Positions 13,201 to 57,993 of a DNA stretch of 64,000 bases are shown piece by piece (positions within the stretch are counted from its first letter, which is position 1; every line of letters starts with the position of its first letter). Under the pieces are notes generated by a model that saw nothing but the letters and a program-made list of their open reading frames with translations, ran no database searches and was not told where the DNA came from. The stretch comes from Styela clava. Its lineage: Eukaryota. Made by a program: the position numbers and the translations under genes. The stretch spans positions 10,726,001-10,790,000 of the forward strand of contig NC_135254.1 in assembly GCF_964204865.1 (NCBI RefSeq), written 5' to 3'.

Positions 13201-14535
13201 GCAAAGTATAAATAGTAATAATATGACATTATTGAAACTTTTGAACATTTCCAGAATCTTTCCTACACTCATAACTAATCAAAAGTTGCTAGTTTTGTCC
13301 GAGATACATATGATAAAATTCAGCTGACAGGTTTTGTTCAATTTTCTTCCATCAAAAACAGAAAGTTCTGCTGGCAGTAAATAAATGATATTGTGCAACT
13401 GATTTCTTCAATAAACATAATTTATCTAGTTGAATCTAAAGCATTGGACCTAGATAACCCAATTCTCATTTTCCGTAGAAGAATTTGCCCAAAGAAAAGT
13501 TATAGTCGCACTCACTCGGAATAGGAGATACTCGTATCTTGATTAAAATACGAGGAGTGTAATCTGAAGTAAGGTATTTTGATTTTTGATGGTGCAACAT
13601 ACACTATAGCGAATATCTGTTATATCGAAGTCAATGGCATTAAAATATATAAATAGTTATTTGCATAAAAAGGACATTTTCCACAAATTAAGTATACATT
13701 TATTGCAAACAGAGTTTGTTACCGATTAATCGTTGACAGACAAATCCAGTTGGTGCATTCGCAGCGCATTCGGAGTCATACCACGGTAGATTTGCATGAT
13801 ACGCATGCCACCACCCCATAGCAACACAATGTTCAAGTGGATAACTAGAAGGTTCTCCTGTGTTCCAATTAGTGTAGGTTATTTCTGAATTGTCCTTCCA
13901 TTTGAAGATATTGCTTGTGCCAACTTCCTTCAATCCAATATAAAATCCATATGGTGTTCCTGTAGAAAATAAAATGCTTTGGCGTAATAGAACGTTTTGT
14001 CGTGTGTAATATTTGTTGTGTGGCTGGTTGGGGCTGTTGGACATAATTGAATACATGTGCAAATATACGAAGACTGACGAATTAGAAATATTACGAATTC
14101 AATTAAACAAACGTATGAATGATTCTTGCGCAAATACCAAAACATTTTTATGACTGTGATGGTAAATAACCTTGAGCAAATTCATTTGGAGATTTTGGGT
14201 AAAACGTAAAATGTCCTATTTACCTGAGGTAGCTGAGACTTGATTTTGAATAAACGTTTGAATTTTGCTAGTTTTTATCATTGCCATCTCGCCATCATTG
14301 TTTTTACAGAATAATTTACCATCAGCATTTGATTTTAAATCTCCTTTTCCAGATACGTAGTATTGGTAACTCCCAAGTGCATTCCACTCACCTCTACCTT
14401 GTCGCAAAAATAAACAGTTTATGAATAAGCACATAATTTGAAAGACGTGATGACATATAATATATACCAACCTGCGCTAAGGACGGCAATCGTCCTAGCA
14501 ACTAATCCAATGTATATTAAAAATTTCTCTCTCAT
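4289..14535 (-). CDS. Receptor A1: SP-(CTLD-TSP1)x3-mucin-TM-Tyr-rich activating-type tail, ~819 aa, 15 coding exons
   Basis: Exons 14535-14472 (SP), 14397-14224 + 13959-13723 (CTLD1, EPS/WYD), 13095-12965 (TSP1), 12448-12382 (linker), 11965-11792 + 11420-11166 (CTLD2, EPN), 9134-9004 (TSP1), 8474-8408 (linker), 7990-7817 + 6607-6353 (CTLD3, EPN), 5927-5800 (TSP1), 5405-5192 (Thr-rich), 4971-4866 (TM ILLVAIISSIVTLILAAILFGIVLLI-RKCR), 4571-4289 (tail). All introns are GT-AG with compatible phases; total 2460 nt, no internal stop seen. Confidence 0.88.
6628..7453. mobile_element. Non-autonomous DNA transposon (MITE), TA target duplication
   Basis: TIR tcgtcacgctaataaccgaattgcgtaagtcattttt at both ends with TA on each side. 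The empty site catatcata|ttgtttt is in the paralogous intron near 11440. Confidence 0.9.
10655..10865 (+). mobile_element. tRNA-derived SINE-like element
   Basis: Pol III B-box GGTTCGAATCC at 10694-10704 with an A-box-like motif upstream. GC-richer than the flanks. A second copy is on the opposite strand at ~56035-56245. Confidence 0.6.
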
Positions 14536-15824
14536 TTTCACTGCTAATTATCTAACATTCCTAACTTTTTTCATTAACATTCTAATTTGAATCCGAAAAT
14601 TAAAATAAAACAAGGATAATGTATATTCGCAAGCTAAAAACGTTGTCATCTTCTTCGTCACAAAAATGAGAAAATTCAAAAAAGTTTTTGGGTAAGAACT
14701 AGTATGGAATATTAACGACGTTTTCGATTTTCGATAAATCGATTGGATAGCACTACTAAATTTCTTTCAAAGCTAATAACACAACTGTATGCAATACTTA
14801 TGAATGAATGATTTGATTTCCCACAATAGCATTAAATATAGGTATTCAAAAACCTTCGATCTTATTTTCAGTACACTGCAAATAATTATCAAATTTCTAG
14901 CCGCATTAATTTCAGTTTCGGAAGATTAATGCAGATGAAACCTTAATTCGACTTGCCAGGATGAAATCATAAGTAATATGATCTGACATTTCTTAATTAT
15001 ACAATAATTAGGTCTAATATGAGTAATGGAGTTAACATTTTTACACATGTAAAAATAAAGCGTTTGTGGGGGACAGAAAGAGTAAAACTTACTATCATGA
15101 GTGGGACGTTTCAATAACCTTTTAGTTACAAAGTTTTTGAAATGACAGCAAAGAGATGATTAATGACGAATATGCTGCAGAAGAAGATACCTATTACAAA
15201 GCTACTTAGCAATGTTATGACATTATTCAGTCACTTATGTTCGTGTTATATATTGAGCAAACCTTATTCATACAGAAACATAGTGGCATTTTAAAAAATG
15301 ACAAAACTCGGATATCAAAATGTAAAAATTATAACAGGGTTGGCCTAATGCTATTTAGTTGAGATTTGAACGAAACAATTAGTTTCTATTCTAAAAGAAT
15401 TAAAAATAATATCGTTTAGTGCCATTTCACACACATTTGGTTTTTCTAAATAAATAGTGAGTTGCGAAAATAAAATTGCAAAACTTCTAAATGCAAGTAT
15501 ATACAAGTGTTATAGTGATCACTGGCTCAGAGATATCTTTATGCGGTAATGTAATAAATAAGGATAAGTGTGCTCCTACATTTCATGAAAATGTCTTTTT
15601 ATGCATTATAATAAAACCGTTAAATTTGAGGTGAGATAGCGGGTCCTACAGGATTTAGAGGTAATGTGAAAGACATGATATATATAGACTATGGCATTCT
15701 TGCGGTTTTGCAATCTTCGGGTACTAAGAATCAGAAATCGATTAGTTGGAGTTCAATTACGATAAAATAGCCTATAGGTTCATCACTACAGCATCGACAA
15801 CAACAGTAATTTAGAAAAACGATT

Positions 15825-16698: not shown

Positions 16699-16805
16699 TG
16701 TACATTTTTGTTGTTAAGACTTCGTTGATTTTTACAGAAAATTGGTTAAATAAGAATAAACGTTTCACATTTTTAGATAAGGTAAGTATATTTTTAACAA
16801 ATAAA

Positions 16806-17303
16806 TTGGCTTACCATACGTCCCGCTTTAGGCGGGACAGTCCCGCTTTTCAGCGTTTTGTCCCGCCATCCCGATAAGTCTGCCAAAAGTCCCGCTTTTC
16901 CAGCATAATACACAAACATGTTCTCGTTACTGTTGTTTCTGTGTAGCGCAGCGCTAGCCTACTTACTGAAGGTGAATGCGTTCGTTTCCCGCTGATTCCC
17001 ATTGATGGCAGACGTATCGCATGTAAAACCAATACTAATTAGTCTCAATTCGAGTTATTTGTACCGGTATCGTTAACTTCAATTCCTTCCTATTTTTCGA
17101 ACTGAACCCGATATTTGGACAGAGAATATGCGCATGAAATTTCGATAACAATATGGTCAATAAAGACAGTCGAGACAGCTTCAAATGTAGGAATGTAGGC
17201 CTATGTAGTAAAATCGGAAAATGTGAAGTTATAAAATCACAGCTAAGGGGTCGTTGTCTTTCGAGGCGTCCCGATTTGAATACACAAAAATATGGTAACC
17301 CTA
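16806..17303. mobile_element. hAT-type MITE
   Basis: 8-bp TSD caaataaa (16798-16805, 17304-17311). Ends ttggcttaccata...tatggtaacccta. Absent from the paralogous site near 33935. Confidence 0.8.
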
Positions 17304-18456: not shown

Positions 18457-20573
18457 AGCTCAAATCGTTTTATCCAGCCTCCTACAAACCCTATCCAATC
18501 GTCTTATTTATTTCACAGACCTACAAAATATTGCATGTTCTGTTACTTCCCTGCATTGCCCTATTTTAAAGATATGACTTTAATCCTTCTCAGCGATTAA
18601 TGAACAGTATTTATGTATGCAAAATGGATATATTTTTTCAGTTTCATGAAGTTTAGACATCCCACTCGTTTACATTATTTGTTTTGACGTGTTTTATATA
18701 CGTGGTTTCTACATCACCACGCTTTCCTATTCTTGCTAATATACGAACATGCATGCAGCTATACGTTATGTTGTTTTGAGTCGATAAATTTATAACAAGA
18801 CATTTACACAATGTGAATTATATGAAAAAAAGATGGTGAAACTTATAGAGATCTTATAGTAAGTTTCTTATTGTTCACACTTGTTCTGGAATATGTAACA
18901 CCAAAGTAATCAATTGTATTGGTGGACAAGAGCCCTCTCCTAAATTTATTGTATGTTTTTCCACATATGTGACTTTTGGTTAAATACAACTATTATAAAA
19001 TTAAACTCAGTTACTTCGTAGCGCTATTCATAAATCGTGGTTGAGCCTAACAAATCTTGTAACATGGCCCTGATTAGGTAACAAAATTTTAGACAAATAA
19101 TGGCTGTGACCTCCAAGTCAAGAAGTTTGATTAAAATTCATATGAATTTACAATGAAAGCTATATATGTGAAGGTAAACTAGTAATATATATTTGCGAAA
19201 TGCGTTTTAAATTCAATGTTCGATAAAAAATAAATTCAAAGTAGTTAGTAAAATTCTCTGACCAAGTTTATTGCATATATATATTTGAATAAATGTCAAA
19301 TTCTAACAGGATTGTCAGCTCTACCACTAGAATCAGATGAAATTTAGTTTTGCATATTTCATACCTTTATTGCGAGATTTGATAGACAAAACGGAAAAGC
19401 TAGATTTGATAAAAATACCCATCGATTAAATAAAATTGGTAGTGTAAATATTTATATATTGGAATGAAATACTGTTACCATGACGAAAAAGGCAATGCTA
19501 TGCATGATTGAAAAGTATGGATTCAACTTTATTTATGGAATCTGTATATAAAATATAAAGCAGTATAAGGCAGAACAGCGTAACATATTCGAAAACTAAA
19601 AAATAGTCAAAATTTACGGTAAAAATAACTTGAAAAACCCTTCCAGATAACCAGACAAATGAATATTGTTCCCAATACATGTTTATATCATGGCATCAAA
19701 GTAGATATAGTTTGGTAAAGATTTTAACAACAAAGGCGTTTTGTCTAATAACCGATCCGGGTCCGATCTGTAAATAGTTAACCAAGTAATCATTGAAGTA
19801 ATCAAATGTTTCATTGAAGAAGAATATCATGACAATTTTCTAAGTTTCGTTCACACCTTCAATGAAAATAACGCTTTGGTAAAGCAGTTTGAATTGGATT
19901 GTTCAAATTCATAATTATTTTACAAAATCAATTAAAGTAAATTCATTGTGAATTTAACTTATATATTGGTACTATGCTGGCCTTTTTGTCAGTTTTCTTT
20001 TATAAATTGTCGACGATGGGGCGAAGTTGTTGAACCTTCATCATTCAATCAATTTAAAACAAGCTTCAAAATTACTATCGTAAAGTTTATTGGGATTAGA
20101 AAATACCTTTTCAAATAACAAAGCAGGAGCAGTTTATAATCAACCCGGGGCGCTCCAGAGGTGTGTGTACCAATATGGAAGTAGTTAATTTTGTTCGCCT
20201 ACTTTACATCAAGTTTTGTGAAGGTACTGAAACCTGTGGGCAGAGGGCATGTTAACTTGACTAACACAGACAATCCCAAGTTCGTAATACAACCAAAATA
20301 AAGGGAAATCGGGATAAAATTATGGCCTAACCCTAACCTGGTACACACCCTACGGAAGTAGCCAACCAGATGTATAATATATTAGATAATCAACAGTTAC
20401 CTCCAGAAGCAACATGGCTCGTAGTAAGCATTAGTAGGTTTATTTATCAGTCTGAACCTGTTTTTCTGCTACTAATCCAATAAATATGTGATATTGATTA
20501 TAGTTTAATTTAACTTTCCCATCCTTATTTATTATTGTCAATATTTGCATATGGATCATCGTTTACTTCAATG

Positions 20574-23500
20574 TCAGCCTTCGGCATCTCCCGTGACATC
20601 GGAATTCTGATCAGTTTCAGGTTTATTGACCGTTGCATAAGTTACTTCATTGAAGTTTGAAGAATCATCTTTTTTGGGTTTCTGTACAACAGCAAGGGTC
20701 ACTTTATTGTCGTCTCCATCTGAAGATATTTCCTTTTCATCAAAGAAGTTTTCTGATTGCGAAATTTTTTTAGAATCCTCAACATTGTGTTTTTGAACCG
20801 TTTCATAAACCACAGGGGAGTTCTCGTCAGGGAAACCAGAAACCTTAATTTTTTCACTCTTTTTTTGCTTATCAACAACAGCGTATTGAGTTTCTGATAC
20901 ATCTACCGCGTCCAAATCTTTTGAGGATTTGGATAACTTTTTCGATTTTGTCTTGATAACAGCAGTATATATAGCATTGTTGTTGCCTTCTGTGGTCACA
21001 TCGTTTATCTGATCTTGATGGTTATCGGCAATGGCGTAGAGGAAATCTTGCCCGTTTAATGAGTCAACTTGATCTTCGGGTAAAAGAGAATTATTGTCTG
21101 CCTGTTCATCAGATTTTACAAACGTCTGATAACGAAGAGTTTCCGTATTTTGAGAATTGTCTCGACTAGATACTACATCTTCGGGATCTATAGCAGTAAA
21201 ACATGTTAGTGATATATAATAATGTAACACCTTATCTTGTTTTATGCTTCTCTGTGTAGTATTCCTATATGCTTTATATTCTCAATATATTTCCACAAAA
21301 TCACTGTTTTTCCTATTAGTCATATAGTTCAAATAAGATAATCATATGGTGCACATAGAAATGAGCATTCCTTTTTGTTTGTCATACATTTACTAGCATG
21401 TGGTAGACAGTAAAGTATAGGAATTCATCAACCCAGATACAATACGTTGACGTAATACTTTAAAGGAAGTTACATTAACTTACGATCTGACATTAGATCC
21501 CTCGGATTGAGATGATCTTCAATTTCCAACCCATGATTGTAATTGCCAAGCTCTGCTGTGTTTATGATTCCTTGTCCTCTTCTGAAAGCAAAACTTTAGA
21601 TTATATACATTCCATGTAAAATGAGTGAACCCTTAAAAGAATATTTGGTATTTGTTCACTATTCATAAGAGATATAATGTCATAATGTGGGATATATTAC
21701 CTTTTTTTGAGTTGCTTTGAAAGTATATAAACAATGATAAGCGCTAAAAGAAGAAATCCGCCGATAGTTCCCACGACTGGTCCGATGATTGATGTTTGTG
21801 CAGCGGGTGTAGATGGACGAAGAATACCAACCGTCGAAATGTCAGGAATTTCTGTGTGAGATAATATAAGAATTAATATATATGATCAGAAATTTGATTT
21901 AATACATTATGTTCATTTAGACAAGCCAACACATTTTCGCGAGCTGAAATTGAATGTAAAATTTTTTGCAACGCGTTGCTTGTTGATTGCTACTATATTC
22001 TGAATTGGTAATGACTGTAGAATTCTGCTCAAAGCATGTAATGTCGTACCTGCGAATGAAGAAGAAGTGCCTTGCAAGTTAAAGGTTGCGTTTGTCACAA
22101 CATACACACCGGCAGTCATGGTAGTCATTGCGTCGGAGGGTTCTTCGTTTGTGGGCGAGGTGGTTAACTCACTAGCAGTCGTAGTTAATGGAAATGTTGT
22201 TTCCGCAACAGTAGTCGTATAACAACTTGGGTCTTTTGTACAATTTGCAGTCTGTATTTTGTAATCAAGTTGTTTACATTATAGAGTCGCAATCGCGTTG
22301 CTCAATTTATTTGTACCCCTTTGTGATGTCGCATCGAGACGTTTCTAGACTTGCCGAAGTCGGCGAGCATCTTTGATTAAGATATGCGCCGTTTGTAACT
22401 GTAATTCCTAGATTATGGTTGTAAATGCAGTAGGTTGCGTATGACTTAGTTCAGTTACCGTGACCATTAGATTTTGTTTTTAGTTGTTTAGGGCTATTGC
22501 ATTTAGAATAGTTATATGTTTATGATGGAATAGGAATTATAGCTCCACTGAATATCCCTTATTGTTATTTATTTGCAGTTAAGTTACTTATCTTAATTGT
22601 GATTTAAGTTGTTCACTTTTGTAAAACCCGTTAGGGTACTCATTACCCGTTACGATACTAGATACCCATTACCCCGGTTTGGACGTATCGTATTTGTTAT
22701 CAAGACGTTATCTACACCTGCAAGTTACCTATATGTTTACTGTCATTATTTCTGGATTTGATGATTAACTTTCGACATTAACATTTAAAGTTCTGTGGAA
22801 CCTTTTCAATATAAGTTTCAAAGCAATTCAGATTGTTTGACAGTGTGGAACTGGGGAGGGATTTTGCAAGGTTCAACTAAGATCGTATCAAATTATTATT
22901 GTTTGCCGAGCAAAAGGTTCGGGGTCTACAGTACGCTAAAGTCAAACGCTAGAACTCTAGTCCAAATATCCAACACCGGCTGGCAAAATATTTGAGTCCC
23001 ACCACTGGTCATATATATATATGTAAAACAATTTTACTTCAAACTGTGATGTCGTATCGTTGCAAGCGTATGGACCAATTCTTCCGCTGTCAACACAAGT
23101 TCGGTTTCGCTGCCTCATTCCCGGGCATTCACAACTTCCCCAAGACTCCCATGATTCCCAATTCCAGCCTGCAGAAACATGCAGATTAAAATAATAGTTA
23201 TATATTTTACAACCGAGTATTTCGAAGCTATATGATATCAGTAAATTAAAATCAAGATGAACTGTTAATACATTATGAGCGGTAGAAAAAATAGCATAGC
23301 TGTGCAAAGTATGAATAGCGATGAGATGACATTATGAAAATTCTAAAACATTATCAAAATCTTTCCTGCACTCATGTCTCATAGCTAATCAAAAAAAGTT
23401 TTGTACTGAATATTTTAGATAAAATTTAGCTGACAGGTTTTTGGCGGTTTTATCGAAAACTGAGAATTCTTCTGACAGTAATTTAATGATATTGCGCAAC

Positions 23501-24925
23501 TGCTTTCTCTAATAAACATAATTTATCCAGTTAAATTTGAAACATCTGACCCAGTTAACCCAATTCTCATTTTTTTTGTAGGAGAATTTACTCAAAGAAA
23601 AGTCAGTCGCAATCACTCGTAAAATGTAAACTAGTGTCTGATTAAAATGCGGGCAGTCACAGAGATGCCAAGTGCTACTGAAATCAAACGGTATTTTGTT
23701 GGTGCAATAAGCAACAGCGAATACCTGATGATGTGATACTTTAAGCACTTTAAATCAATGCTATAATAAACTACGAGGCAGTAAACATGGCATGAATAAA
23801 ATTTACTAAATTGGAGTCAAATGTCATTAAAATATATAAACATTTATTTATATAAAGAAATAGGAATTGAGTGGCAAATTTAGTATACATTTATTACAAA
23901 CAAAGTTTTATACCGATTACTCGTTGACAGACAAATCCAGTTGGCGAATTCGCAGCGCAACTGACGTCATACCACGGTAGATTTGCATGATACGCGTTAA
24001 ACCACCCCATAGCAACACAAGGTTCAGGTTTATCACTAGACGGTTCTCCTGAGTTCCAGTTAGTGTAAGTTAGTTCCGAATTGTCATTCCATATGAAGGT
24101 ATTGTTTGTGCCAACTTCTTTCAATCCAATATAAAATCCATAGGGTTGTCCTGTAGACAATAAAATGCTTTAGAGCAGAATTTCCCAAACTTAGCTTAAT
24201 TGAGCAGTAAAAAGCATTAATGACGTGTGTGTTGCTACATAGATGAAACATTATCCTTCCTCATCCTTTCTCCTGGTTAGACACATAAATTGATTCGGCA
24301 TACGATAGGGGTCCGACAAAACTAAGATTCACAAATAGGGGTACGCGACCTAAAAAGTTTGGGAAACCCTGCTTCAGATTAATGGAAAGTTATGTAAGGT
24401 TGTATGTAAACAAGGCTGATTAGGACTGTTGGACATAATTGAAAACAGGTGCAAATATGTAAAGACTGTCGAATTAAAAATTGTCACACAAACGTATTGA
24501 GAATTCTAACACAAATTCCGAAACGCTTGAACAAAGATAAAGACCATAATGTTAAATAACCTTAAACAAATTCATTTCGGGATTTGGGGTAAAACGTGAA
24601 ATGTCCTGTTTACCTGAGGTAGCTGAGACTTGATTCTGAATAAATGTTTGAATCTCGCTAGTTTTTATCATTGCCATCTCACCATCATTGTTTTTACAGA
24701 ATGTTTCGCCATCAGCATATGGTTTTATATCATCTTTTCCAGATACGTAGTATTGGTAACTTCCAAATGCATTCCACTCACCTCTATCTGGTCGCCAAAA
24801 TAAAGAGTTTGTGAATAAGCACATAATATGAAAGACCGGATGATATATGATATATACCAACCTGCGCTAACGACGGCAACCATCCAAGCAAATATCCCAA
24901 CGAATATCAAAAATTTGTCTTTCAT
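20574..24925 (-). CDS. Receptor I1: SP-CTLD-TSP1-mucin-TM-ITIM/ITSM tail, ~556 aa
   Basis: Exons 24925-24862, 24787-24614, 24150-23914, 23168-23038, 22251-22050, 21851-21701 (TM IIGPVVGTIGGFLLLALIIVYIL-SKQLKKR), 21581-21484, 21187-20574. GT-AG, phases compatible, 1671 nt. Tail motifs AIYTAV, TQYAVV, VVYETV, VTYATV. Confidence 0.85.
22322..22783. mobile_element. Possible solo LTR
   Basis: TGT...ACA ends with an imperfect terminal inverted repeat (tgtgatgtcg / cgacattaaca), ~460 bp, absent from paralog I2. No TSD found. Confidence 0.4.
24176..24371. mobile_element. hAT-type MITE in intron 2, shared by both inhibitory-type genes
   Basis: Ends cagaatttcccaaactt...aagtttgggaaaccctg with a degenerate 8-bp TSD (ctttagag/cttcagat). 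Matching copy at 44171-44356; absent from A1, A2 and the 30-kb pseudogene. Confidence 0.75.
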
Positions 24926-27342: not shown

Positions 27343-27409
27343 GTATTATTTCATTATTATGACTTTTTTTAGAAAATTTACTGAAAATAAGGTTACTCAT
27401 ACAGGTATA

Positions 27410-29583: not shown

Positions 29584-30400
29584 CGATTGATCGTTGACAG
29601 ACAAATCCAGTTGGCGCATTCGCAGCGCATACCACGTCATACCACGGTAGATTTGCATTGTACGTGAGAAACCACCCAATAGCAACACAAAGTTCAAGTG
29701 CATAATTAGAAGGTTCTCCTGTGTTCCAGATAGTGTAAGTTAGTTCCGAATTGTCATTCCATATGAAGGTATTACTTGTGCCAACTTTCTTCAATACAAT
29801 ATAAAATCCATAGGGTTGTCCTGTGGATAATTAAATGCCTTAGCTTAGAGTAATAATAAGTTTTGTTGTGTGTAATATTTGCCGTATATAACCATGGCTG
29901 ATTGGGGCTGTTGAACATAATTGGAAACATGTGCGAACACTTGTATACTGATGAATTAAGAATTCATAAACCAACGTATGGGGATTTCTCGCGCAAATCC
30001 CCAAACCGATGAGCAAAAGATTCTAATGATCATGATGATAAATAACCTCAAGCAAATTCATTCAGGGATTCAAGATAAAACGTGAAATGTCCTATTTACC
30101 TGAGGTAGCTGAGACTTGATTCTGAATAAACGTTTGAATCTCGCTCGTTTTTTTCATTGCCATCTCACCATCATTGTTTTTACAGAATGTTTCAGCATCA
30201 GCATATGGTTTTATATCATCTTTTCAGGATACGTAGTATTGGTAACTTCCAAATGCATTCCACTCACCTCTACCTGGTTCGCAAAAATAAAGAGTTTATG
30301 AATAAGCACATAATATGAAAGACCGGATGATACACGATATATACCAACCTGCGTTAACGACGGCAATCATCCAAGCAAATATCAAAAGTTGCTCTTTCAT
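29584..30400 (-). pseudogene. Truncated CTLD receptor pseudogene (SP + CTLD1 exons only)
   Basis: Exons 30400-30349 (12-nt deletion in SP), 30273-30100 (in-frame TGA at 30226-30224 where paralogs have GGA) and 29820-29584. Downstream exons are missing beyond the foldback element. Confidence 0.85.
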
Positions 30401-37500: not shown

Positions 37501-38125
37501 AATGTACTGAAACCTATGGACAGAGGGCATGTTCACTTGGCTAACACAGACAGTCCCAATCTCGCAATAGAACTAAAATAGGGGGAAATCGGAATAATAT
37601 TATGGCCTAACCCTAACCTGGTACACACACTACGGGAGTAGCCAACCAGATGTATAACATAATATTAGATAATCAACAGTTACTTCCAGAAGCAACATGG
37701 CTCGTAGTTGGGTAAGCATTAGTAGGTTTATTCATCAGTCTGAACCTGTTTTTCTGCTACTAATCCAATAAATATGTGATATTGATTATAGTTTAATTTA
37801 ACTTTCCCACCCTTATTTAATATTGTCAATATTTGCATATGGGTCATCGTTTACTTCAATGTCAGCCCCTTCAGCATCTCCTGTGACATCGGAATTCTGA
37901 TCTGTTACAGGTTTATTGACCGTTGCATAAGTTACTTCATTGAAGTTTGAAGAATCATCTTTTTTGGGTTTCTGTACAACAGCAAGGGTCCCTTTATTGA
38001 GTTTCTGATGCATCTGCCGAATCCAAATCTTTTGAGGATTTGGATAACTTTTTCGATTTTGTCTTGTTTACAGCAGTATATATAGCATTGGCGTTGCCTT
38101 CTGGGGTCACATCGTTTATCTGATT

Positions 38126-41100
38126 CTAATGGTTATCGGCAATGACGTAGAGGAAATCTTGCCCGTTTGATGAGTCGACTTGATCTTCGAATAAGAGAGA
38201 ATTATTGTCTGCCTGTCCATCAGGGTTTGCAAACGTCTGATAACGAAGAGTTTCCGTATTTTGAGAATTGTCTCGACCTGATTCCACATCTTCGGGATCT
38301 GTAGCAGTAAAACATGTTAGTGATATATATTAATATGAAGCAGCTGTTTTGACACACTTGAAGCATTTTCGTTTGGAGGAGTTGGAAAATAGGTCGGAGC
38401 CATTCAGATTAACTGACTACAGATTTGAATACGGACTCATACACGCTATTACCTACCCGAGTTACCTATATTAATATAATTACCAAAACTGAATGCATGA
38501 TAAAGTTCATTAGAAACAACAATTCTGAATTTTTACGTGGAAAGATTCTATTTAGTATCGGTTGGTATCGTTGCAACAGGATGTGATTTAAATGTAACAT
38601 CTTATCTTGTTTTACGCTTCTCTGTGTAGTATTCCTATATGCTATATATTCTCAATATATTTCCCACAAAATCACTTTTTTCCCATTAGGCATATAGTTC
38701 AAATAAGATAATCATATGGTGCACATAGAATTGAGTATTCCTTTTTGTTTGTCATACATTTACTAGCATGTGGTAGACAGAAAGTATAAGAATTCATCAA
38801 CCCAGATAGAATACGTTGACGTAATACTTTAAATGAAGCTACATTAACATACGATCTGACATTATATCTCTCGGATTAAGTTGAATTTCCATTTCTAACC
38901 TTTTATTGTAATTGCCGCGCTCTCCTGTGTTTATGATTCCGCGGCCTCTTCTGAAAGCAAAACTTCAGATTATATACATTCTCTGTGAAATGAGCGAACC
39001 CTTAAAAGAATATTTGATATTTGTTCACTATTCATAGGAGATGTAATGTCATAATGTTGGATATATCACCTCTTTTTGAGTTGCTTTAAAAGTATAAAAA
39101 CAACGATAAGCGCTAAAAGAAGAAATCCTCCGATAGTTCCCACGACTGGTCCAATGATTGATGTTTGTGCAGCGGGTGTAGATGGACGAAGAATACCAAT
39201 CGTCGAACTGTCAGGAATTTCTGTGTGAGATAATATAGAAATTGATATCAGTACAATATAAATGATCAGAAATCTAATTTAATACATTATGTTCATTTAG
39301 ACAAGCTAACACATTTTCGCGAGCTGAAATTGAATTTGAAATATTTTGCAACGCTCACATTTGAAAATTATTCGTACGAAAGTTATTTGACTGCTTCATC
39401 TTGATTGTATGTTAACATTTAAGCATTCTAATTGGTTTTTTCAATGATCGAATGTTGGCCACGTTCTCGCGTGCATATTAGTAAAGGACTCAATTCTACA
39501 AAAGGCGAAACTAACCTATAAACTTATGACTTGGTATGCTAAACGATTGCTAATGCCGTTATAATTATCCCACGTTCCGTTTGTTGGTATTATTTAAGTT
39601 TGGTTTCATTGCAGATTTTGCCAATATTAACTCTGATCAAATGTATATTGTTGCTTATTTGCAGCTAATAGTATGAGGTCAAGCCCGTAAAATTATAAAT
39701 CGCAGTTTTTTTGGCGCGATTCTCATTTTTAGAAAGTGACTTGAGTTAAAAGAAAGATATGAATGAAGTATTCCTAATTCTGCTACCGGAGAGTATAAAT
39801 TGATTTTGTCCTCAAAGTGAATTATGACTTCCATGTTTGCGTTTTGTGACATTACATTTATATTGTGACGACCCGTTTACATTTTTACTTAAATAGCGCG
39901 CCTCATATTAAACTCAAATACGCTAATATGTGAATAATATGTAAAAAAAATTTAGATTTTGTAATCTTCTCTGCTTTGAAATATATAATCTTTGTGAAAT
40001 TTACTCGACGTTTCGTCTTCAGTTGACGATTCAAAAGTAGCAATCTTTTGCGTCTTTGTTTGTTCCATAGTGGGTTTCATAGTGCTTTTATGTTCTGTCG
40101 TCGTTGCGGTTGTAACACTAATTGAAGTTGCGTGTTGATTGCTGCTAGATTCTGGATTGGTAGTGATTGTAGACTTATGATCAAAGCTCGTAGTGGCGAC
40201 AGTAGACGTGGAATCAGTTTTTGTGGGAGTGGAAAAAGATTGAGTAATTTTTCCTGTCGTTGTTTCCATTACCGTTGTTGCCGTAGACAAAATTGGCGAT
40301 GTCACTTCGAAATTACTTCCTTGGCTTGTTTCGCTCGTTGATTGTATCATTGTATTTGTAGGGATTGTGGTTTCCAATAAGCTACTTGTTATTCCACCGC
40401 TATCAGAAGATGTCATTTTATTTGCCATCGTCGTTCTACTCTCATTTGTCTGTGCGAGGGACATGGGGGATGGCCCTGTAATCGTCGTGCTTTCTGTATT
40501 AACAAAGTGGCTGTCCATCCCTGTGGTTGTCGTTGGTTCGGGGAGATGAATAGTTGACTGGGTTAAATTTATGCCCATTTCTTCAGGGCTGTTAATTTTA
40601 GTTTCAGATGTGAATTGGAAGGTCACTGTCGTCATTTGGTCTTGTTCAGTTTCTGCGAGTGAAGAAAATGTGCCTTGCAAGTTAGAGGTTGCATTTGTAA
40701 CAACATTATTTTTCTCTGTAGAACCGGTAGTTATTACGTCGGTGGTTAACTTACCAGTTGTAATTAATGAAAATGTTGTTTCCGCAACAGTAGTTGTGTA
40801 ACAAGTTGGGTCTTTTGTACAATTTGCAGTCTGTTAAAAATATTGAATCAAACTAAGGGAAAATTGAAATTGATCACTATTAATAATTCCCAAACATTAC
40901 TTTTAAATGGCAAAAGTTTCTGTATCATACCCGGAAAGCATTAATATTTTCAATATATATACACAGGATATGATATAGTATCACTCTGATTCTTCCACCG
41001 CCAAAACGATTTGATCATGCCGTGGAAATAAGTTCTACGATATATTATTTTGAGGTTCAAGATCATCTCTAACATGCTAAAGTAGATTATTCCGAATGGA

Positions 41101-41880
41101 GAATGCCATCACTTTATAACGTGATTACTCGAGAATGAAAAACTATCATTCAATATAGCTGTGTATAAATTTGACATTGAGTTCAAGCTACACTACAGTA
41201 AAAAATTGCAGATAAAATAAACAACCACGACGACAAGAAAATCATAAAATGTACACGTTAAATATTTAGCTACTTCATACCTCATTGCGACTGCCAGCGC
41301 ATGCATCGGGTCCTGTTCGCGGAGAATTAATGCATGTGCGATTTCTCAATTTGATTATGGTTGAGCAGTTACATTCACTCCAAGAAGACCAGGTTCCCCA
41401 GTATTTACCTATATTGGAACTGTTATTTTTTTATAAATGCAATCAGCTAGATAGTAATATATATAGATATACAAAGGGGGTTTTCAGCAAAGTTCTAACT
41501 TTCTAACAAACTTTTTTGCAAAATGTTCTCGAATCTTCATAAGATCCTGAACTACCACCTGTTGAAACATAGTATTCATAACTCCCATTAGGAAACCAAA
41601 TTCCTCGATCTGTTTCACAAAAGAAATATCAAATAATAGAATAACGAGAATATCGGTCGGAGACCGAAGACTTATCCGTTGAAAGTTAGGGGATCCCCCC
41701 AAACAGCGATCTTACTCCACAGTGACACTTTGTGTCCCGTCACTAAATATTTAATAACTTGCTAATTATACTACATAATTTGCCCAAAATCAATAGGCTT
41801 CTGGTCCGAGATATGATAAACGTACAAGCAAAATCTGAAGCAGATTTAATCTCGCTTTCGTTAGATATCGCGTGCATCTA

Positions 41881-41949
<69 letters not shown>

Positions 41950-42987
41950 TACCTATCAACATACTTACCGATTAAAATCGATAAGTAATGACAGTATCTC
42001 GAAAAATGCGCAGTGAAAATGCGTGAGCTAGTGAAAACATTTGAAAAATAATTAAAAAAAATACGTTGGCTTTGGGGTGACTTATATGGGAGCGAATAAC
42101 AGAGCCCATTGTTCATATCTTATCTCTTTTTCCCGACAATTACGATAAGTGTCGAGTTTGATGGAAAATGAAGACGTAACAATCTAATTTTAAAATGGGT
42201 TTTTCATTCTCACCTTGTGGATTCGGAGCTGTGGTCAATAACAACATAGTTGCATTGCAGGAAGCGGATGGCGTGCATATCTAAAATCAACGTTCAATTT
42301 GTTCAATCGTGAATGTAGGTGTTTTAACCAAACTAAATTTAAGTCAAAAATTTAATATTTAATGTAGAATGATCAAAAAATGATTTTTCTCTGGCAATAA
42401 AATCCGAAATAGTTGGGTCCGGACTGAAGCGTTCGCAAGTCACATTCAAAATTGGATTATGGAAAGATTTTGAGATGTTAATCAATCTGTTTGAATTAGT
42501 AACAAAATACGACTAAACTGACTTGAATAAATTTACCTGGGTGGCAATTCTAGGTGTAGGTATTAATGTCGTCGATGAATTTGGGGACAAAAATCTACAA
42601 AACGGTTGCTATATAACGTAATTGAGTCTCAACATGGATATGTATGGAAATTTTTATTTTATTTTATTGGGAAGTTAGGTTTCAAACGACACACTAATCG
42701 ACATGCTAGGACCCTATAAAATCCTAATTTAAAATGTAATAAATATCAATACAGCCAGGTAATAAGCAAGCATTTCGAGCGGAAACACAATCATAATGAG
42801 TTATATACAGTGGTGGAATTCAGCCGGTTCGCAACGGTTCTATGGAACCGTCTCACGGAATTTTATGAGATCAGCTAACCGGTTAGCATTACTGGTTACT
42901 GTCAATGTTCTGTTTGTACCAGAACCGGCTGAAAAATATGACTTTTGTGAAGGAACTGGCTGAAAAAAAATTTGAATTTCATCACTG

Positions 42988-43029
<42 letters not shown>

Positions 43030-44906
43030 AAACAATTTTACTTCCGACTGTGATGCCGTATCGTTGCAAGCGTATGGACCAATTCTTCCGCTGTCAACAC
43101 AAGTTCGGTTACGCTGCCTCATTCCCGGGCATTCACAACTTCCCCAAGACTCCCATGATCCCCAATTCCAGCCTGCAGAAACATGTAGATTGAAATAATA
43201 GTTATATATTTCACAACCGAGTATTTCGAAGCAGTATGATATCAGTAAATTTAAATCAAGATGAACTGTTGATACAATATGAGCGGTAGAAAAAATAGCA
43301 TAACTGTGCAAAGTATAAATAGCGATGAGATGACATTATGAAAACTTTAAAACATTATCAAAATCTTTCCTGCACTCATAGCTAATCAAAAAAAGTTTTG
43401 TACTAAATATTTTAGATGAAATTCAGCTGACAGGTTTTTGGCGGTTTTATCGAAAACTGAGAATTCTTCTGACAGTAATTTAATGATATTGCGCAACTGC
43501 TTTCTTTAATAAACTTAATTTATCCAGTTTAATTTAAAACATCGGTCCCGGTTAACCCAATTCGCAATTTTTGGTAGGAGAATTTACTCAAAGAAAAGTC
43601 AATCGCAATCACTCGAAAAATGTAAACTAGTGTCTGATTAAAATGCGGGCAGTCGCAGAGATGCCAAGTCCTACTGAAATCAAACGGTATTTTGATGGTG
43701 CAATAAGCAACAGCGAATACCTGATGATGTGATACTTTAAGGACTTTAAATCAATGCTATAATAAACTACGAGGCAGTAAACATGGCATGAATAAAATTT
43801 ACTAAATTGGAGTCAATGTCATTAAAATATATAAATATTTATTTGTATAAAGAAATAGGAAATGAGTGGCAAATTTAGTATACAATAATTACAAACGAAA
43901 TTTTTTACCGATTACTCGTTGACAGACAAATCCAGTTGGCGAATTAGCAGCGCAATTGACGTCATACCACGGTAGATTTAAAAAATAAGCGTTAAACCGC
44001 CCCATAGCAACACAAGGTTCAGGTTTATCACTAGACGGTTCTCCTGAGTTCCAGTTAGTGTAAGTTAGTTCCGAATTGTCATTCCATATGAAGGTATCGT
44101 TTGTGCCAACTTCCTTTAATCCAATATAAAATCCATAGGGTTGTCCTGTAGACAATAAAATGCTTTGTAGCAGAATTTGCTAAATTGAGCAGTAAAAAGC
44201 ATTAATGACGTGTGTGTTGCTACATTGATGAAATATTATCCTCCCTCCTCCTTCCTCCTGGTTCGACACATAAATTGATGCGGCATATGATAGGGGTCCG
44301 ACAAAACCACGATTCACAAATAGGGGTACGCGACTTAAAAAGTTTGGGAAACCCTGCTTCAGATTAATGTAAAGTTATGTAAGGTTGTATGTAAACATGG
44401 CTGGTTAGGACTGTTGTACATAATTGAAAACAGGTGCAAATATGTAATAAATGACGAATTAAAAATTCTCAAACAAACTTATTGAGAATTCTAACCCAAA
44501 TCACGAAACGCATGAACAAAGATAAAGACCATAATGTTAAATAACCATAAGCAATTTCATTTCGGGATTTGGGGTAAAACGTGAAACGTCCTGTTTACCT
44601 GAGGTACCTGAGACTTGATTCTGAATAAATGTTTGAATCTCGATCGTTTTTATCATTGCCATCTCACCATCATTGTTTTTACAGAATGTTTCACCATCAG
44701 CATATGGTTTTATATCATTTTCTCCAGATACGTAGTATTGGTAACTTCCAAATGCATTCCACTCACCTCTATCTTGTCGTAAAATAAAGAGTTTATGAAT
44801 AAGCACATAATTTGAAAGACGTGATATATAATATATACCAACCTGCGTTAACGACAGCAATCATCCAAGCAAATAATTCAGTGTATATCAAAAGTTTCTC
44901 ATTCAT
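38126..44906 (-). CDS. Receptor I2: SP-CTLD-TSP1-linker-TSP1-long mucin-TM with tail truncated before the ITIMs (~682 aa); decoy or pseudogene
   Basis: Exons 44906-44843, 44772-44599, 44145-43909, 43172-43042, 42280-42214, 41408-41281, 40830-40005, 39220-39070, 38950-38853, 38298-38126 (premature TAG). The model requires skipping a broken CTLD exon starting at 41609. Remnant tail sequence continues to 37813. Confidence 0.65.
41881..41947. repeat. (ACAG)n microsatellite inside an intronic insertion (~41658-41987)
   Basis: About 16 perfect units; the surrounding insert is absent from the paralogous intron near 12005. Confidence 0.95.
42808..42987. mobile_element. hAT-type MITE followed by a (TA)n microsatellite (42990-43026)
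   Basis: TIR cagtggtggaattca / tgaatttcatcactg; near-perfect 8-bp TSD gttatata/attatata. Confidence 0.8.
44171..44356. mobile_element. hAT-type MITE, same insertion as 24176-24371
   Basis: Same sequence and same intron position as in I1. Confidence 0.75.
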
Positions 44907-52393: not shown

Positions 52394-54366
52394 CTTATAT
52401 TCGGGATGTCAGACTTTTCAAAAGAAGATATTTTTTACACATACCAACTTAAAACACATGTAAATCTATATATGTGTGCGTATATTTTTCATTCAGTTCA
52501 AATAAACATATTAGGACAATCCATCTATTATATGCTGATATAGCCACCACCACATTCAGAGTATAATAAACTGGGTTAGGAATGCGGAACCGGAAATATT
52601 CTGGTCCACCAAGTTCTGTTCTTTATGCATTATTTACTACTTCCATGGTTTCTTATTTGGGGTGAAATGGTGAAGAACATTTCATAAAAATAATGCCAAC
52701 TGATTACAGCTCCAAAGTTGATTGGAATCCTGATTCAAAATGATAATACATTCAATTATTCAGGCTCTACTTGGGCATTTGATACTGGCAAGGAAAGCTA
52801 ACACTGCTTGACAACCCAATCAAACTCAGTTCAGGTGAATTAAACTGAATATTCTCTTCTTCATTCAGATTCCAGTTTTGTCAAATAAATTATCACCATG
52901 TAATGTAAATAGATTGAAATCATGTTTTTGAATTTATAAGGAAAATTTATAGAATTTTGTAATATTATTCGAGGACGCTTTCGAGGTCAATTTGCTTTGA
53001 TTCATTTTAATGAAATATTTACTATGCACACATTTTACACTTATATTAGTAAATCAAAAAAAAAATGAATGTAATAAATTTTGATCGTATTTAGTGATAA
53101 TATTTACTGCCTTGGAGAAATTACCATTATTTAAATGTTTAGTACAAGATTATATTATTTAGTTTATACTACTGTCGAATAACTTATTCTCGAACGTAAA
53201 GGCAGTCAGCTAACTAAAGAAAATCATTCGAGCACTATGTTTTTACGTTGTTACGTATGGTTGTTCTCTTTTGGTACGAGACTAAATCATTTAGTTTATA
53301 CTTTGCCGAATAACTTATTGCCCAAAGTAAGGGCAGTCAGCTAACTAAAGAAAATCATTCGAACATGTATGTTTTTACGTGGTGACGTATGTTTTACGTC
53401 ACAACTCACAGATACCGCAATCAATGTTATGCTACGGTTCACATCATGAGAAAGCGTTTACCAAGATTTTATATGTGATACTTGTTTAATTTGGAAAGAT
53501 CTAGTCTAGGTCATAATTGAACAAATACATTCAATTCGAATTATTAATTTAAGATTATATCGTTACAAACCTTATTTATATATAATCTGTTTGACTTATA
53601 TTCATAGTTTTGTACAAGACAAAAACAATAATGGACCATACAAGTATGTTCTGAATTTGGTTATATTTTAAAGTTTCTATAACGAACACTTGAACGAGTG
53701 TGAACTCATCACTTAGTCCTATAGCATTATAAAATAAGACGATTCCACCAAGCTTCAAATTATTGAATACCAATTATTGTAAGAAAAATGTCAGTGGCAC
53801 CTACAAACAAAAAAGAAACACACTTAAAAAAATATGTTACTAATTTAGAAGGAAACAGGATGGATGCTATCAGGGTAAAGCTTTCAACAAAATATGACTT
53901 GAAATTAACAATATTTGTTGAAAACACTTCAGAGTTAGACAATAGTGCTTGTGTACTTGCTTTCATTTATGGTAGGAAATAGAAAACCAAGGAATATCAC
54001 AATACATCCATAATACAATACATCAACTTCATTTATATTACGGGATTCTTAAAAAAGTGGCAAATGTATTGCAAAGAAACCATTACCAGCCTAGATCATG
54101 TTATGCCAGTTATACGAATCCAGATCCACAGTTGCCTTTATAATGAAAGATCCAAATTTTACATCTCCGATATGCAATGTTATTTTTGTTTCAATGAGTA
54201 TCAGCTAATACAAGCGCAGAAGTTCAAGAACAAGTAGTAATGGTTAAAATTACAATGCTTGTATGCGTTTCAGAATGTATAACAAGATTCACGACTAAAC
54301 AGGAGTGGCAATGGATGATTGCTATTTAAAATCAACATGTCAAGAATCATATTCATTTTTAGGCAT

Positions 54367-57300
54367 TTAATTGATGTACGGATGTTCTTTTGTTGTGCTA
54401 TTATTCATTTCTTCGTATTGATGATCTCCGTCTTTTATTTTCTCATAATTATGCGGGATTTCATAATTTTCTTCTTTCTCTTCTCTTAACTCATAATTTC
54501 CGGAGTTCAGTTGTGATGTTTGAATTTCATCAAAGTTTTCATAATAACTCGGGACGTCATTAACAACCCTATTCATCTCTGAAAGACGTTGTGGTTGAGT
54601 TGCGATTTTTTGAGAATTCCTTCAGTAAACAAAAAATAAGTTAGAATTAATTAATAAGTAGGATTTTAAATAAGAAACATTGGATTTGTTTTCGGAATTG
54701 CTTCTACCATAGAGGAGTTAGACAAAACAATCGACGAAAATGTTAGAGCCCAGTATTGCAGACATTGTCCCAGACATTGAGATTGCGCATACAGCTGTAT
54801 AAAGAGACACACCTTACTGATTCAATTAAGAGTGAATACTCCAAATTTTCGGAAAATATACACATTTTGTTGTAGTATCGAACATTTCTCACCTCATTTT
54901 TTTGTTTCTACAAATCAGCGAACCAATTCCAAATAGAATGATTGCAAGAATCAATGTGACTATGGATGAAATAATTGCAACCAATAAATTGTCGTGGCCT
55001 GCAATATATTTCAACATATAGTAAGAAGAAGCATAAACGTTAAAAAAATTATCAGCATTGAACACAGGTTAAACATGAGAATCAGAAAGTCAGTGAGCAT
55101 TTTATGTAACCACAAAATAGTAGTTTTAAAAACTCTGATTTTGTGCACTTAAGACTAATGTCTCTTATAATTTGTAAGCTATATAATCTTACCACAAGAA
55201 GTCGTTGTAGTAGTAGTGATTGCACTAGAGGGAAAGAAAATGTTTATCTTCGTAGATTCTGTGTTATTTGCATTGGCAGACAATGTGGAAGTATGTGTCA
55301 TGTCATTGAGAGTTGTAAATTTATGATAAATATTTGTTGTTGTCATTTCAGCAGGCGCCGCGGTGGACGTTGTACTACAGGCAGTGTCTCTTGAACAATT
55401 GGTCGTCTGAAGAAAGTAATTGTGTTTAGCAATTTTTCGATACAATATATGTACGATAATATTTGTATATTCCAACATTTATTTAAATCCGAAGTTTAAT
55501 GGTTGGACGTTCTTCAAAAAGTTAAACAAATTTAAAAATGCTCACAAAAATATTAATTCACACGCTTATGAAAAATAACGTCGGGCGCCCTGAATAAGAA
55601 CTACTAGATATTCACTTTTACGACTGCGGCTTATACGCTGTGAAATAGTAAAAACTATTCACACAACATAGAATGATGATCCTTTTTTTTTGAACCTTTT
55701 AGAAAATCAGAAATTATTAACTTACTACAAATAATGGCATTTTTTTTATTATTTCTTACCTCAAAATTAGAACCAATGCAAATATTGGGCCCCGTTCTTC
55801 CCGAGTCAATGCATGTTCGATTACGTACTTTCATCATTGAGCTGCAGTTACATGTACTCAACGATGACCAGGTTTCCCAGTATCTTCCTGCACAGTGTAA
55901 AGATTTAAAACAAAAGTTTTTTTGCCTGTTTTGATTAGAATGGCTGTATTTTTGTACGTAGTAAATAGGTTTAAACTTAAATAGGAAAAATTGCCAATTG
56001 CTTCTTATTCGCAATAAACCCTTCGAAACTCTACAAATATCGATGACTTGCCCATACACGCCTTCTCAAGCTGTAGTGCAATACGTCCGCAAACATGGTC
56101 GGCGGAGAAAGACGCAAACGATAAGCCATTAAGTGAACCACTCCGTGTCGACGAGAAGTCCAACACTCTTGCACATTGTCACATCCCTCATGAGATTCGA
56201 ACCAGGGGCGACTATACCATTGGGCAAGGTAGGCTAAAGCCTTGAAGCCTCTAACCTCGTAGGCCTTAACAATCAATTTTAAGCTCATATTCACTGTAAA
56301 TCCTTTTTGAATTGTGAAGCCTTCAGAGTTCCAGAATAATGTCACTTTAAAACTTTATATTTTTATTATTCACGGTAATAATTCCAAATATTTACCGATT
56401 GAAAGATTAAAAAATTTGAAATATGGCCGAATAAATGATTTTGTAATAATACATCAACTTGAAATCCCTATTATGTTATATCCCATGGTTTAAATTTGTC
56501 CCAGATTCGAACCTGCATTCCAGCCGATCTAAGTATATTCTCCATTATTGTATTAATGCACTTGTTTTGTCGAATTTACAAGCGGTGACCGGGCTCCTGA
56601 TGCAAATGTCTTTAGATTGTAGTAGGCCCGTGAGAGATGTTACATGATTTTTCTTTTTTTTTACTCAAAGCGTCTCCCTGATAACTCAGATAAACATTCC
56701 TGTTAAAATCTTACGACTTTAGTGTTGGTACTAAGTTGGCGATATAGTTGCACAATGACAGTGAAACTTGAAGCAAACATTATAATAATCATTTATGCAC
56801 TAATATTTAATCAAGAGTAGTTAGTTTTGAACGGAATATTTATGATAGAATTCATAGTCGCACTCACTAGGAATAAAAAAAAATCGTATCTGATTAAAAT
56901 ACGGGCGGTCGCTGAAATGCCAAGTGCCACTGAAATCATACCGTATTTTGTTGGCGCAAAGAGCAACAGCGAATACCTGTTGATGCGATACTTGAAGTTA
57001 TTTAAATTAATGTTATAAAGTTTAAGTAAAATAACGATCAGTAAACATTGGTATGATTTAAATGAACTAAATTAAAGTCAATGGCATTAAAATACATAAA
57101 TAGTTATTTGTATAAAGAAAAAATGACATAATCTACAAATTAAGTAGACTTATTACATTAAAAGTTTGTTACCGATTAATCGTTGACATACAAATTCAGT
57201 TGGTGCATTCGCAGCGCAATCGACGTCATACCACGGTACATTTGCAAAATACGCGTTAAACCACCCCATAGCACCACAAGATTGGGTACTCTCACTAGAA

Positions 57301-57993
57301 GGTTCTCCTGAGTTCCAGTTAGTGTAGGTTAGTTCTGAATTGTCATTCCATATGAAGGTATTACTTGTGCCAACTTCCTTCAATCCAATATAAAATCCAT
57401 AGGGTTGTCCTGTGCACAATAAAATGCCTTATCTTAGGGTAACGTTTTGTCGTGTGTAATATTTATCCAATATGAACATGGCTGATTGGGGCTGTTGAAC
57501 ATAATTGGAAACATGTGCGAACACTTGAATACTGATGAATTAAGAATTCATAAACCAATGTATGGAGATTTCTCGCGCAAATCCCAAAACCCATGAGCAA
57601 AAGATTCTAATGACCATGATGATAAATAACCTTAAGTAAATTCATTCAGGGATTTGAAATAAAAAGTGAAATGTCCTATTTACCTGAGGTAGCTGAGACT
57701 TGATTCTGAATAAACGTTTGAATCTCGCTCGTTTTAATCATTGCCATCTCACCATCATTGTTTTTACAGAATGTTTCACCATCGGCATATGGTTTTATAT
57801 CATCTTTTCCGGATACGTAATATTGGTAACTTCCAAATGCATTCCACTCACCTCTACCTGGTTCGCAAAAATAAAAAGTTTATGAATAAGCAAATAATTT
57901 GAAAGACATGATATATAGTATATACCAACCTGCGTTAACGACAGCAATCATCCAAGGAAATAATCCAATGTATATAAAAAGTTTCTCCTTCAT
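54367..57993 (-). CDS. Receptor A2: SP-CTLD-TSP1-mucin-TM-activating-type tail, ~391 aa
   Basis: Exons 57993-57930, 57857-57684, 57409-57173, 55887-55760, 55406-55193, 54998-54893 (TM), 54619-54367. The ancestral last acceptor is mutated (cag>ctg); an in-frame aag 3 nt downstream is assumed. The tail is 9 aa shorter than in A1. Confidence 0.75.
56035..56245 (-). mobile_element. tRNA-derived SINE-like element (copy of 10655-10865)
   Basis: Reverse-complement match including the B-box GGTTCGAATC. Confidence 0.6.

Follow-up and report, generated by a model that had tools for sequence, protein, structure and literature searches.

Loop variation in a tandem cluster of type I C-type lectin-like receptor genes with two predicted tail classes in the tunicate Styela clava

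Paired receptors are encoded by clustered genes with similar ectodomains; some members carry immunoreceptor tyrosine-based inhibitory motifs (ITIMs), and the activating members are short-tailed, with a charged membrane residue for an adaptor with an ITAM (immunoreceptor tyrosine-based activation motif), as set out in passages of PMC3533184. Here we analyse a 64,000-nucleotide stretch of the Styela clava genome (NC_135254.1, positions 10,726,001 to 10,790,000; hereafter the window) that holds five members of a 24-gene cluster of receptors with C-type lectin-like domains (CTLDs). Variation among the paralogs concentrates in the predicted ligand-binding loop of the outermost, or distal, CTLD. The best explanation, which we hold with moderate confidence, is a paired-like cluster of 24 type I genes in which the distal CTLD loop is selected at about 10 codons and its variants are shuffled by gene conversion. 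Variation in a CTLD binding loop alone is an expected pattern; the point of interest is that an invertebrate chordate has a recombining, apparently lineage-specific cluster with tails of two classes.

Like the vertebrate paired CTLD receptors (DCIR/DCAR, Ly49, NKR-P1, CD94/NKG2), as these are outlined in parts of the accounts cited here, the Styela genes are clustered, have similar CTLD ectodomains and include members with and without ITIMs. Unlike them, the Styela receptors have type I topology, begin with a signal peptide and combine TSP1 repeats with a mucin-like stalk, and they lack the type II topology and single C-terminal CTLD of receptors of the natural killer (NK) complex such as Ly49, CD94 and DCIR. 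Also in contrast to vertebrate activating members, the class of Styela genes termed A has its own tyrosine tail of 84-94 residues and no charged membrane residue, so that no adaptor would be needed. The likeness in layout is probably convergent, because sequence identity to vertebrate receptors is only 20-30%. The Styela cluster thus has the similar ectodomains of paired receptors and, in its second class (I), the ITIM; the A members do not have the short tail with a charged membrane residue. It may work like a paired-receptor complex but departs from the charged-membrane and type II features of the definition given in sections of PMC3533184.

Among tunicates, the sole family that we found in print with comparable ITIM/hemITAM tails is Ig-based and belongs to the colonial Botryllus (PMC12582321). 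According to portions of that paper, the FcoR genes are likewise clustered ascidian genes for receptors of type I; their tails are of the ITIM or hemITAM type, and they diversify by intergenic recombination. Their ectodomains are Ig-like and Sushi, unlike the CTLD and TSP1 domains of Styela, and the genes occur in pairs with FF genes in association with a colonial fusion locus. The Styela cluster is not homologous to FcoR, and the word 'Styela' does not occur in the main text of PMC12582321. Passages of a review (PMC5465252) describe BsCD94-1 and CiCD94-1, which are also tunicate CTLD receptors, of hemocytes, CiCD94-1 being described as not binding carbohydrate; unlike the Styela cluster, they are type II single genes. 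The term 'ITIM' does not occur in this review, and its reference list includes titles on Styela plicata that concern the rejection of allografts and cytotoxicity of hemocytes. A description of the present cluster was not found in literature searches that excluded subscription journals and supplements.

The best sequence match is the mannose receptor family, which shares the type I topology and tandem CTLDs and is the source of the automatic RefSeq names and the top PDB sequence matches. Its members have a Cys-rich domain, FNII and 8-10 CTLDs. The Styela proteins, by contrast, contain 1-4 CTLDs and end in long tails rich in tyrosine; their Pfam lists name neither FNII nor a ricin-type domain.

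The tandem cluster and its variable distal loop

One query exon gave 46 matches in the genome, 24 of which have identities of 68-100% and fall in C5:10.51-10.84 Mb (about 330 kb; genomic positions are given as contig:position). Exon mapping, which covered 394 kb around the cluster, resolved these into a tandem array of eight genes with the longer I tail, 15 with the shorter A tail and one truncated copy, with I and A genes interspersed. The genes encode spliced type I receptors in which a signal-peptide exon comes first and is followed by the N-terminal, distal CTLD, split across two exons with GT-AG borders in every gene mapped. Further 3′ lie TSP1 exons and between zero and three proximal CTLDs, and the genes close with a stalk rich in Thr, a membrane helix and a C-terminal tail of one of the two kinds. 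One copy is truncated with a stop, another carries a frameshift, and one pair of copies has identical CTLDs. The second distal CTLD exon matches PF00059 (Lectin_C) above the Pfam cut-off; TSP_1 gives a weak match below the cut-off for the single exon and is listed for the full-length models, whose Pfam lists hold PF00059 and TSP1 families only.

Splice joints at the predicted borders, with CT..AC ends, were found in contigs of presumed RNA runs from three studies. They comprise the joints CTLD exon 1/2, CTLD/TSP1, stalk/transmembrane (TM) and TM/tail as well as a form that skips the first tail exon, and they attest splicing at the level of the family rather than for a given paralog, tissue or level. 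All 16 homologous proteins found are from S. clava, most of them named 'uncharacterized'. Among the best 150 of 2707 matches of a profile search, five further relatives at 37-50% identity were also all from S. clava, and the remaining matches were generic CTLD proteins with identities of at most 35%. The receptor family therefore looks lineage-specific within the libraries searched.

The initial annotation had quoted loop motifs for five copies in the window, and a six-frame motif scan recovered each of them exactly, on the minus strand, with EPS at 13855, 24046, 29716, 44041 and 57305. They read SYPLEHC..WWHAYHAN..WYDSEC (A1), SDKPEPC..WFNAYHAN..WYDVSC (I1), NYALELC..WFLTYNAN..WYDVVC (pseudogene), SDKPEPC..RFNAYFLN..WYDVNC (I2) and SESTQSC..WFNAYFAN..WYDVDC (A2). 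The copy at 29.8 kb (x_756) was rightly called a pseudogene, because it has a stop within the first CTLD exon, which precedes the loop exon, and lacks downstream exons. When the five copies are compared, variation affects 17 of the 30 columns of the loop and 28 of the 106 elsewhere (Fisher p=0.0037), which confirms the concentration of variation in the loop; mean amino acid identity is 67% for the loop, 90% for the preceding exon and 87% for the exon-2 framework. The description of the preceding exon and framework as almost invariant was overstated. In the preceding exon 14 of 57 columns vary among the five copies, its codons 15-30 form a second variable patch present in all copies (pN 0.131), and the hot zone begins upstream of EPS, at codons 86-91.

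The codon analyses of the distal CTLD were based on 21 intact, non-identical copies; of the 24, the copy with a stop, the frameshifted copy and one identical twin were left out. The proportions of non-synonymous and synonymous differences (pN/pS) were 0.174/0.110 in the loop versus 0.069/0.170 elsewhere in the distal CTLD, and 0.131/0.156 in the second patch. The loop enrichment had a permutation p of 5e-5, or 0.005 after correction for scanning any 30-codon window, and the 17 copies outside the window showed it as well (pN 0.171 in the loop vs 0.073 elsewhere). The ratio pN/pS of loop versus rest was 1.53 vs 0.52 for I genes only and 1.71 vs 0.36 for A genes only. In pN, the most variable loop codons reach 0.35-0.52, and six of the 30 are invariant. 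Other exons have pN/pS ratios of 0.37-0.75 and the signal peptide 0.98. No loop enrichment was seen in the proximal CTLD, used as a control with 12 unique copies and similar pS (pN 0.072 vs 0.078). Among paralogs, the enrichment is thus real and specific to the distal domain.

Because loop pS is not raised (it is lower, p=0.07), we reject as its cause both a hotspot of mutation and a genealogy that is older in the loop. Multi-nucleotide mutations were likewise rejected as a major cause: three of ten adjacent singleton pairs and 34 of 126 singletons fall in the loop.

Another reading is that the copies are uncollapsed haplotypes produced by the assembly and not paralogs. Such an artefact would fit A_797 and A2 (A_783), which have identical CTLDs and share 8.3 kb blocks of 99.7% identity (C5:10779696-10787974 vs 10793082-10801360); this block may be an uncollapsed haplotype or a duplication of very recent date. 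For the cluster as a whole we regard an artefact as highly improbable, given a synonymous-site divergence of about 16%, different exon architectures and the tandem position on one 24.9 Mb contig, and one of the identical twins was excluded from every codon analysis.

Selection, gene conversion and relaxed constraint

Diversifying selection on specificity had been proposed for the loop. Site models were fitted with our own GY94 implementation rather than PAML, using naive instead of Bayes empirical Bayes posteriors and partly optimised branch lengths; an IQ-TREE codon run had coarse branch lengths and was not used. Likelihood-ratio tests (LRTs; twice the log-likelihood difference, 2dlnL) gave 37.8 for M2a vs M1a, 53.6 for M8 vs M7 and 39.5 for M8 vs M8a, values that are inflated by recombination. 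The selected class of M2a and M8 had an omega (dN/dS) of 2.65-2.95 at 13-16% of codons. The LRT held up across four codon-frequency models (37.8-52.7) and when the window copies were removed (33.2). Ten of the 21 candidate sites (posterior >0.5) lie within the 30 loop codons of 136 (p=0.0075), the other 11 being codons 3, 18, 22, 24, 28, 59, 73, 75, 87, 91 and 126. With block-specific trees, codons 93-136 were the sole significant block (LRT 13.0); exon 1 gave 0.0 and codons 58-92 gave 1.6.

The genes recombine. A pairwise homoplasy index (PHI)-type test gave p=0.0005 for all codons together and p=0.002 when confined to codons 93-136, and three trees reached a log-likelihood of -2279 versus -2451 for one tree, with many more parameters. 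Conversion tracts were listed for seven of 210 pairs, of which only A_705/A_581 and I_687/A_678 were at p <1/5000; the latter is an identical tract common to an I gene and an A gene. The 3′ halves of A_581 and A2 are 98.3% identical over 8.5 kb (C5:10570571-10579037 vs 10773148-10781580) and the distal loops of the two genes differ, indicating that ectodomains and tails are shuffled.

Tests of the M7/M8 type on such recombining clusters are strongly inflated by conversion. Neutral simulations (omega 0.1 and 1, genealogies with gene conversion) placed the empirical p of the selection LRT at about 0.04-0.08. Tree-free statistics were compared at matched divergence with two nulls, the second of which is harsh in that every variable loop codon is neutral. 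The ratio of loop pN to loop pS was reached in 2/230 runs of null 1 and 8/240 of null 2, loop pN over gene pS in 0/230 runs of null 1, and the top-10 codon statistic in 4/230 runs of null 1; in a simulation set at slightly too high divergence, the loop ratio was reached in 2/251 and 2/249 runs. The strength of evidence for selection is thus a p of about 0.03-0.1, and not 1e-8.

Relaxed constraint together with gene conversion could account for this pattern: a surface loop drifts, and reshuffled neutral variants inflate tree-based tests with no diversifying selection at all. We consider this explanation unlikely, though it is the main rival, and several results weigh against selection. The joint LRT with three block-specific trees and scales falls to 8.0-9.4, with an omega of 1.7-1.8, and the I-only set gives an LRT of just 2.5, while the proximal CTLD also gives one of 14.9. 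For the loop as a block, a dN/dS at or below 1 would have spoken against selection, and here the outcome was borderline, with an omega of 1.46 that is not significantly above 1 (2dlnL 2.19). Its pN of 0.174 equals the p-distance of the neighbouring intron 2 (0.178; intron 1, 0.122) and is below those of intron 3 (0.240, poor alignment) and of the upstream region (0.204); therefore the loop as a block evolves at intron rate. Singleton changes have a non-synonymous to synonymous ratio of 1.04 in the loop (0.44 elsewhere). In the neutral simulations 23 of 51 runs went beyond the nominal 5% threshold of the LRT, the observed whole-domain value was reached in two and the block value in four. Under null 2, the ratio of loop pN to gene pS was reached in 24/240 runs and the top-10 codon statistic in 12/240. 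The block omega, singletons and intron rate fit relaxed constraint, as do the PHI-type result within codons 93-136 and the 2/51 and 4/51 simulation counts. So do the truncation of two of eight I tails and the two broken CTLDs among 24, as in birth-and-death turnover.

Other observations are difficult to reconcile with relaxed constraint. In the proximal CTLD, the corresponding loop shows no relaxation. Six of the 30 distal loop codons are invariant although the block mean is 1 or more, and hence the free codons average above 1. In addition, the tree-free loop pN/pS ratio lies in the upper 1-3% of null runs, and simulated false positives that reach the observed LRT put 7-8% of sites into the selected class, compared with 14% for the real sequences. 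On balance, it seems to us fairly probable that selection diversifies about ten codons of the loop and some beyond it. What had been proposed is in this sense partly upheld: the location in the binding loop is right and selection is likely rather than established, and any specificity for sugars is putative.

Models of one locus point to variation on a stable tail. P0005 and P0007 share a gene ID across two accession series and presumably represent two haplotypes; in its tail, P0007 matches P0005 at 97.5% identity and the tails of other genes at no more than 73%. The two differ at 12/30 residues of the distal loop, 19/106 other distal residues, 28/356 in TSP/stalk, 0/29 in the TM segment and 6/278 in the tail. 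From these counts, the ectodomain of this locus is highly variable and its tail stable. The proximal loop varies too (10/32), and P0027/P0028, for which orthology is less certain, have no significant loop excess (3/30 vs 7/106, p=0.69); both results again weaken the case for selection on the distal loop.

Calcium site, tails and predicted function

An AlphaFold2 model of the paralog P0014, based on a 36-sequence alignment, is confidently a CTLD (pLDDT 86, pTM 0.81), a fold marked by two helices, two sheets, four conserved Cys and a WIGL-like motif. The fold agrees with the PF00059 match and with the Foldseek search, in which all 38 of the matches listed were CTLDs; the best matches were SRCL, DCIR and CD23 at 22-30% identity, DCIR being third (5b1w, E 6e-11, 25%). 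Codons 93-122 map in the model to the long loop, beta3, the beta3-beta4 hairpin and beta4. The statement that the region from EPx to WxD forms the binding surface with calcium site 2 stands for the predicted position of the loop and fails for an intact site. Canonical site 2 consists of EPN/QPD and WND, according to a section of PMC7276794. DCIR also has the EPS motif, and EPS can serve there in site 2 with a Glu and the Asn-Asp of WND (part of bioRxiv 10.1101/2024.05.20.594848). In the 24 Styela copies, E93 is kept in 21, P94 in 24, S95 in 20, the Glu before Cys (E100) in 16 and D119 in 23. The position of the WND Asn is Tyr in 22, Ser in one and Phe in one, and Asn in 0/24, so that at best four of five ligands are present. 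Site 2 is thus non-canonical, and calcium-dependent sugar binding cannot be assumed. Since site 2 is without its Asn, the ligand may be a protein or may be bound without calcium; the hairpin is rich in aromatic residues, which would suit sugar stacking or a protein ligand.

Of the two tail classes, I tails have tail exons with one to four [ILVS]xYxx[ILV] motifs in six of eight genes, VVYETV and VTYATV in the case of I1. The other two are truncated by early stops, at codon 117 in I_664 and after 56 codons in I2, where the stop in the tail exon (window 37683-38298) precedes any ITIM in this haplotype; both could be decoy-like or dying copies. Among the 15 A genes, YxxI-x6-YxxM occurs in 14 and YIN in all, in tails of 84-94 amino acids; the A2 tail is shortened to 84 amino acids, with YEKI-x6-YEEM. 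No D, E, K or R was found in the A membrane helices of the 14 genes parsed or in the hydrophobic stretch of the 15th. Judged by motif, we predict I tails to be inhibitory and A tails, which are ITAM-like and not canonical ITAMs, to be activating. Two results tell against so clean a division, namely that a canonical ITAM ending in L/I occurs in 0/15 A tails and that the ITIM pattern also matches 3/15; for these reasons 'inhibitory' and 'activating' are predictions.

YEEI, YxxM and YxN are SH2 preferences of Src, PI3K and Grb2. We infer the ligand, the immune role and the sign of signalling as follows. The distal CTLD, whose ligand-facing half is encoded by the five window exons, would bind a variable ligand, either a microbial surface or an allotypic self marker. 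The ITIM tail would recruit a phosphatase of the SHP type and the YEEI-x6-YEEM / YIN tail kinases of the Src/Syk type, PI3K and Grb2. Both kinds of signal would then be combined within one cell, in the manner of the paired receptors of vertebrates. Homologs of Src, SYK, SHP-1, SHIP, PI3K and Grb2 are expressed in Botryllus, according to section 17 of PMC12582321.

Selection may be real and the receptors nevertheless non-immune, acting in adhesion or gamete recognition, with tyrosine motifs for trafficking or generic docking. TSP1 repeats and mucin-like stalks, both present here, are common in adhesion proteins. The A helices, moreover, are uncharged, unlike those of vertebrate activating paired receptors (passages of PMC3533184). 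We judge a non-immune role improbable, because the two tail classes have a common ectodomain and their genes, interleaved within a single cluster, trade sequence, as in the I_687/A_678 tract, and because the layout is that described for paired immune receptors in the same passages. By analogy, the pattern resembles that of mammalian natural-killer-cell receptors, with differences in the loop where selection likely, though not provably, favours new specificities. If the tails signal oppositely, the cluster would be another independent origin of paired receptors, on the lectin fold and without adaptors. It is a tentative suggestion that a solitary tunicate independently built an NK-complex-like system from CTLD-TSP1 type I receptors, in which inhibitory and self-signalling activating members trade loops by conversion and the repertoire differs per haplotype, and that the cluster is the receptor side of self/non-self discrimination by styelid hemocytes. 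The cluster supplies named, clonable candidates for such discrimination in solitary ascidians.

Genes of the window and neighbouring elements

The positions of loops, genes and exons are collected in Table 1.

Table 1. Receptor genes, exons and variable segments in the window
Feature	Window positions	Strand	Basis or remark
Variable loop, distal CTLD of A1 (A_740), EPS..WYDxxC, codons 93-122	13766..13855	-	motif scan, exon map
Variable loop of I1 (I_750)	23957..24046	-	motif scan, exon map
Variable loop of truncated pseudogene (x_756)	29627..29716	-	motif scan, exon map
Variable loop of I2 (I_770)	43952..44041	-	motif scan, exon map
Variable loop of A2 (A_783)	57216..57305	-	motif scan, exon map
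Second variable patch of A1, codons 15-30 of preceding exon, beta1-alpha1 region	14308..14353	-	approximate bounds; candidate sites 18, 22, 24, 28
Gene A1	4288..14535	-	exon map, Pfam; RefSeq model P0027 has the same translation
A1 signal-peptide exon	14535-14472	-	
A1 distal CTLD exons	14397-14224 and 13959-13723	-	
A1 TSP1	13095-12965	-	
A1 proximal CTLD	11965-11792 + 11420-11166	-	
A1 TSP1	9134-9004	-	
A1 second proximal CTLD	7990-7817 + 6607-6353	-	
A1 TSP1	about 5929-5800	-	
A1 stalk	5405-5192	-	
A1 TM	4971-4866	-	
A1 ITAM-like tail	4571-4288	-	
Gene I1	20572..24925	-	exon map; family-level spliced joints at its borders in RNA-like contigs
I1 signal-peptide exon	24925-24862	-	
I1 distal CTLD	24787-24614 and 24150-23914	-	
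I1 TSP1	23168-23038	-	
I1 stalk	about 22255-22050	-	
I1 TM	21851-21701	-	
I1 tail exons	21581-21484 and 21187-20572	-	
Truncated pseudogene x_756	29584..30400	-	signal-peptide exon and both distal CTLD exons only
Gene I2	37683..44906	-	exon map; RefSeq models P0009 and P0031; has TSP1 exons and a long stalk
I2 distal CTLD	44772-44599 and 44145-43909	-	
I2 TM	39220-39070	-	
Gene A2	54339..57993	-	single distal CTLD; has TSP1 and stalk
A2 distal CTLD	57858-57684 and 57409-57173	-	
A2 TM	54998-54893	-	

The first I tail exon (21581-21484 in I1) is both included and skipped in RNA-like contigs (window 21187-21701). Downstream of A1, an orphan second copy of the A-type tail exon lies at window 2189-2472, within a 1.1 kb duplication of 96% identity. 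In several I genes a proximal CTLD is reduced to a remnant of its first exon, the partner being absent, for example at window 41609-41281. The terminal gene of the cluster, I_838 (C5:10837518-10845215), is its sole inverted member and has the most divergent and longest ITIM tail, with four motifs.

More distantly related CTLD receptors, whose tyrosine-rich tails are of other kinds, lie on either side of the cluster (C5:10481293-10491926 and C5:10847863-10852310) and also on other contigs (C18:15.69-15.70 Mb and C1:27.14 Mb); together they correspond to models P0083, P0092, P0095 and P0101. P0101 is a flanking single-CTLD receptor gene at C5:10.848-10.852 Mb, fragments of which are found in at least five repeat units of the cluster. 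In the window, decayed fragments of it lie at 16686-15982 and 33710-31822 on the minus strand, with about 64-71% amino acid identity. A degenerate A-rich tandem tract is located between I1 and the pseudogene, at window 27439-27657.

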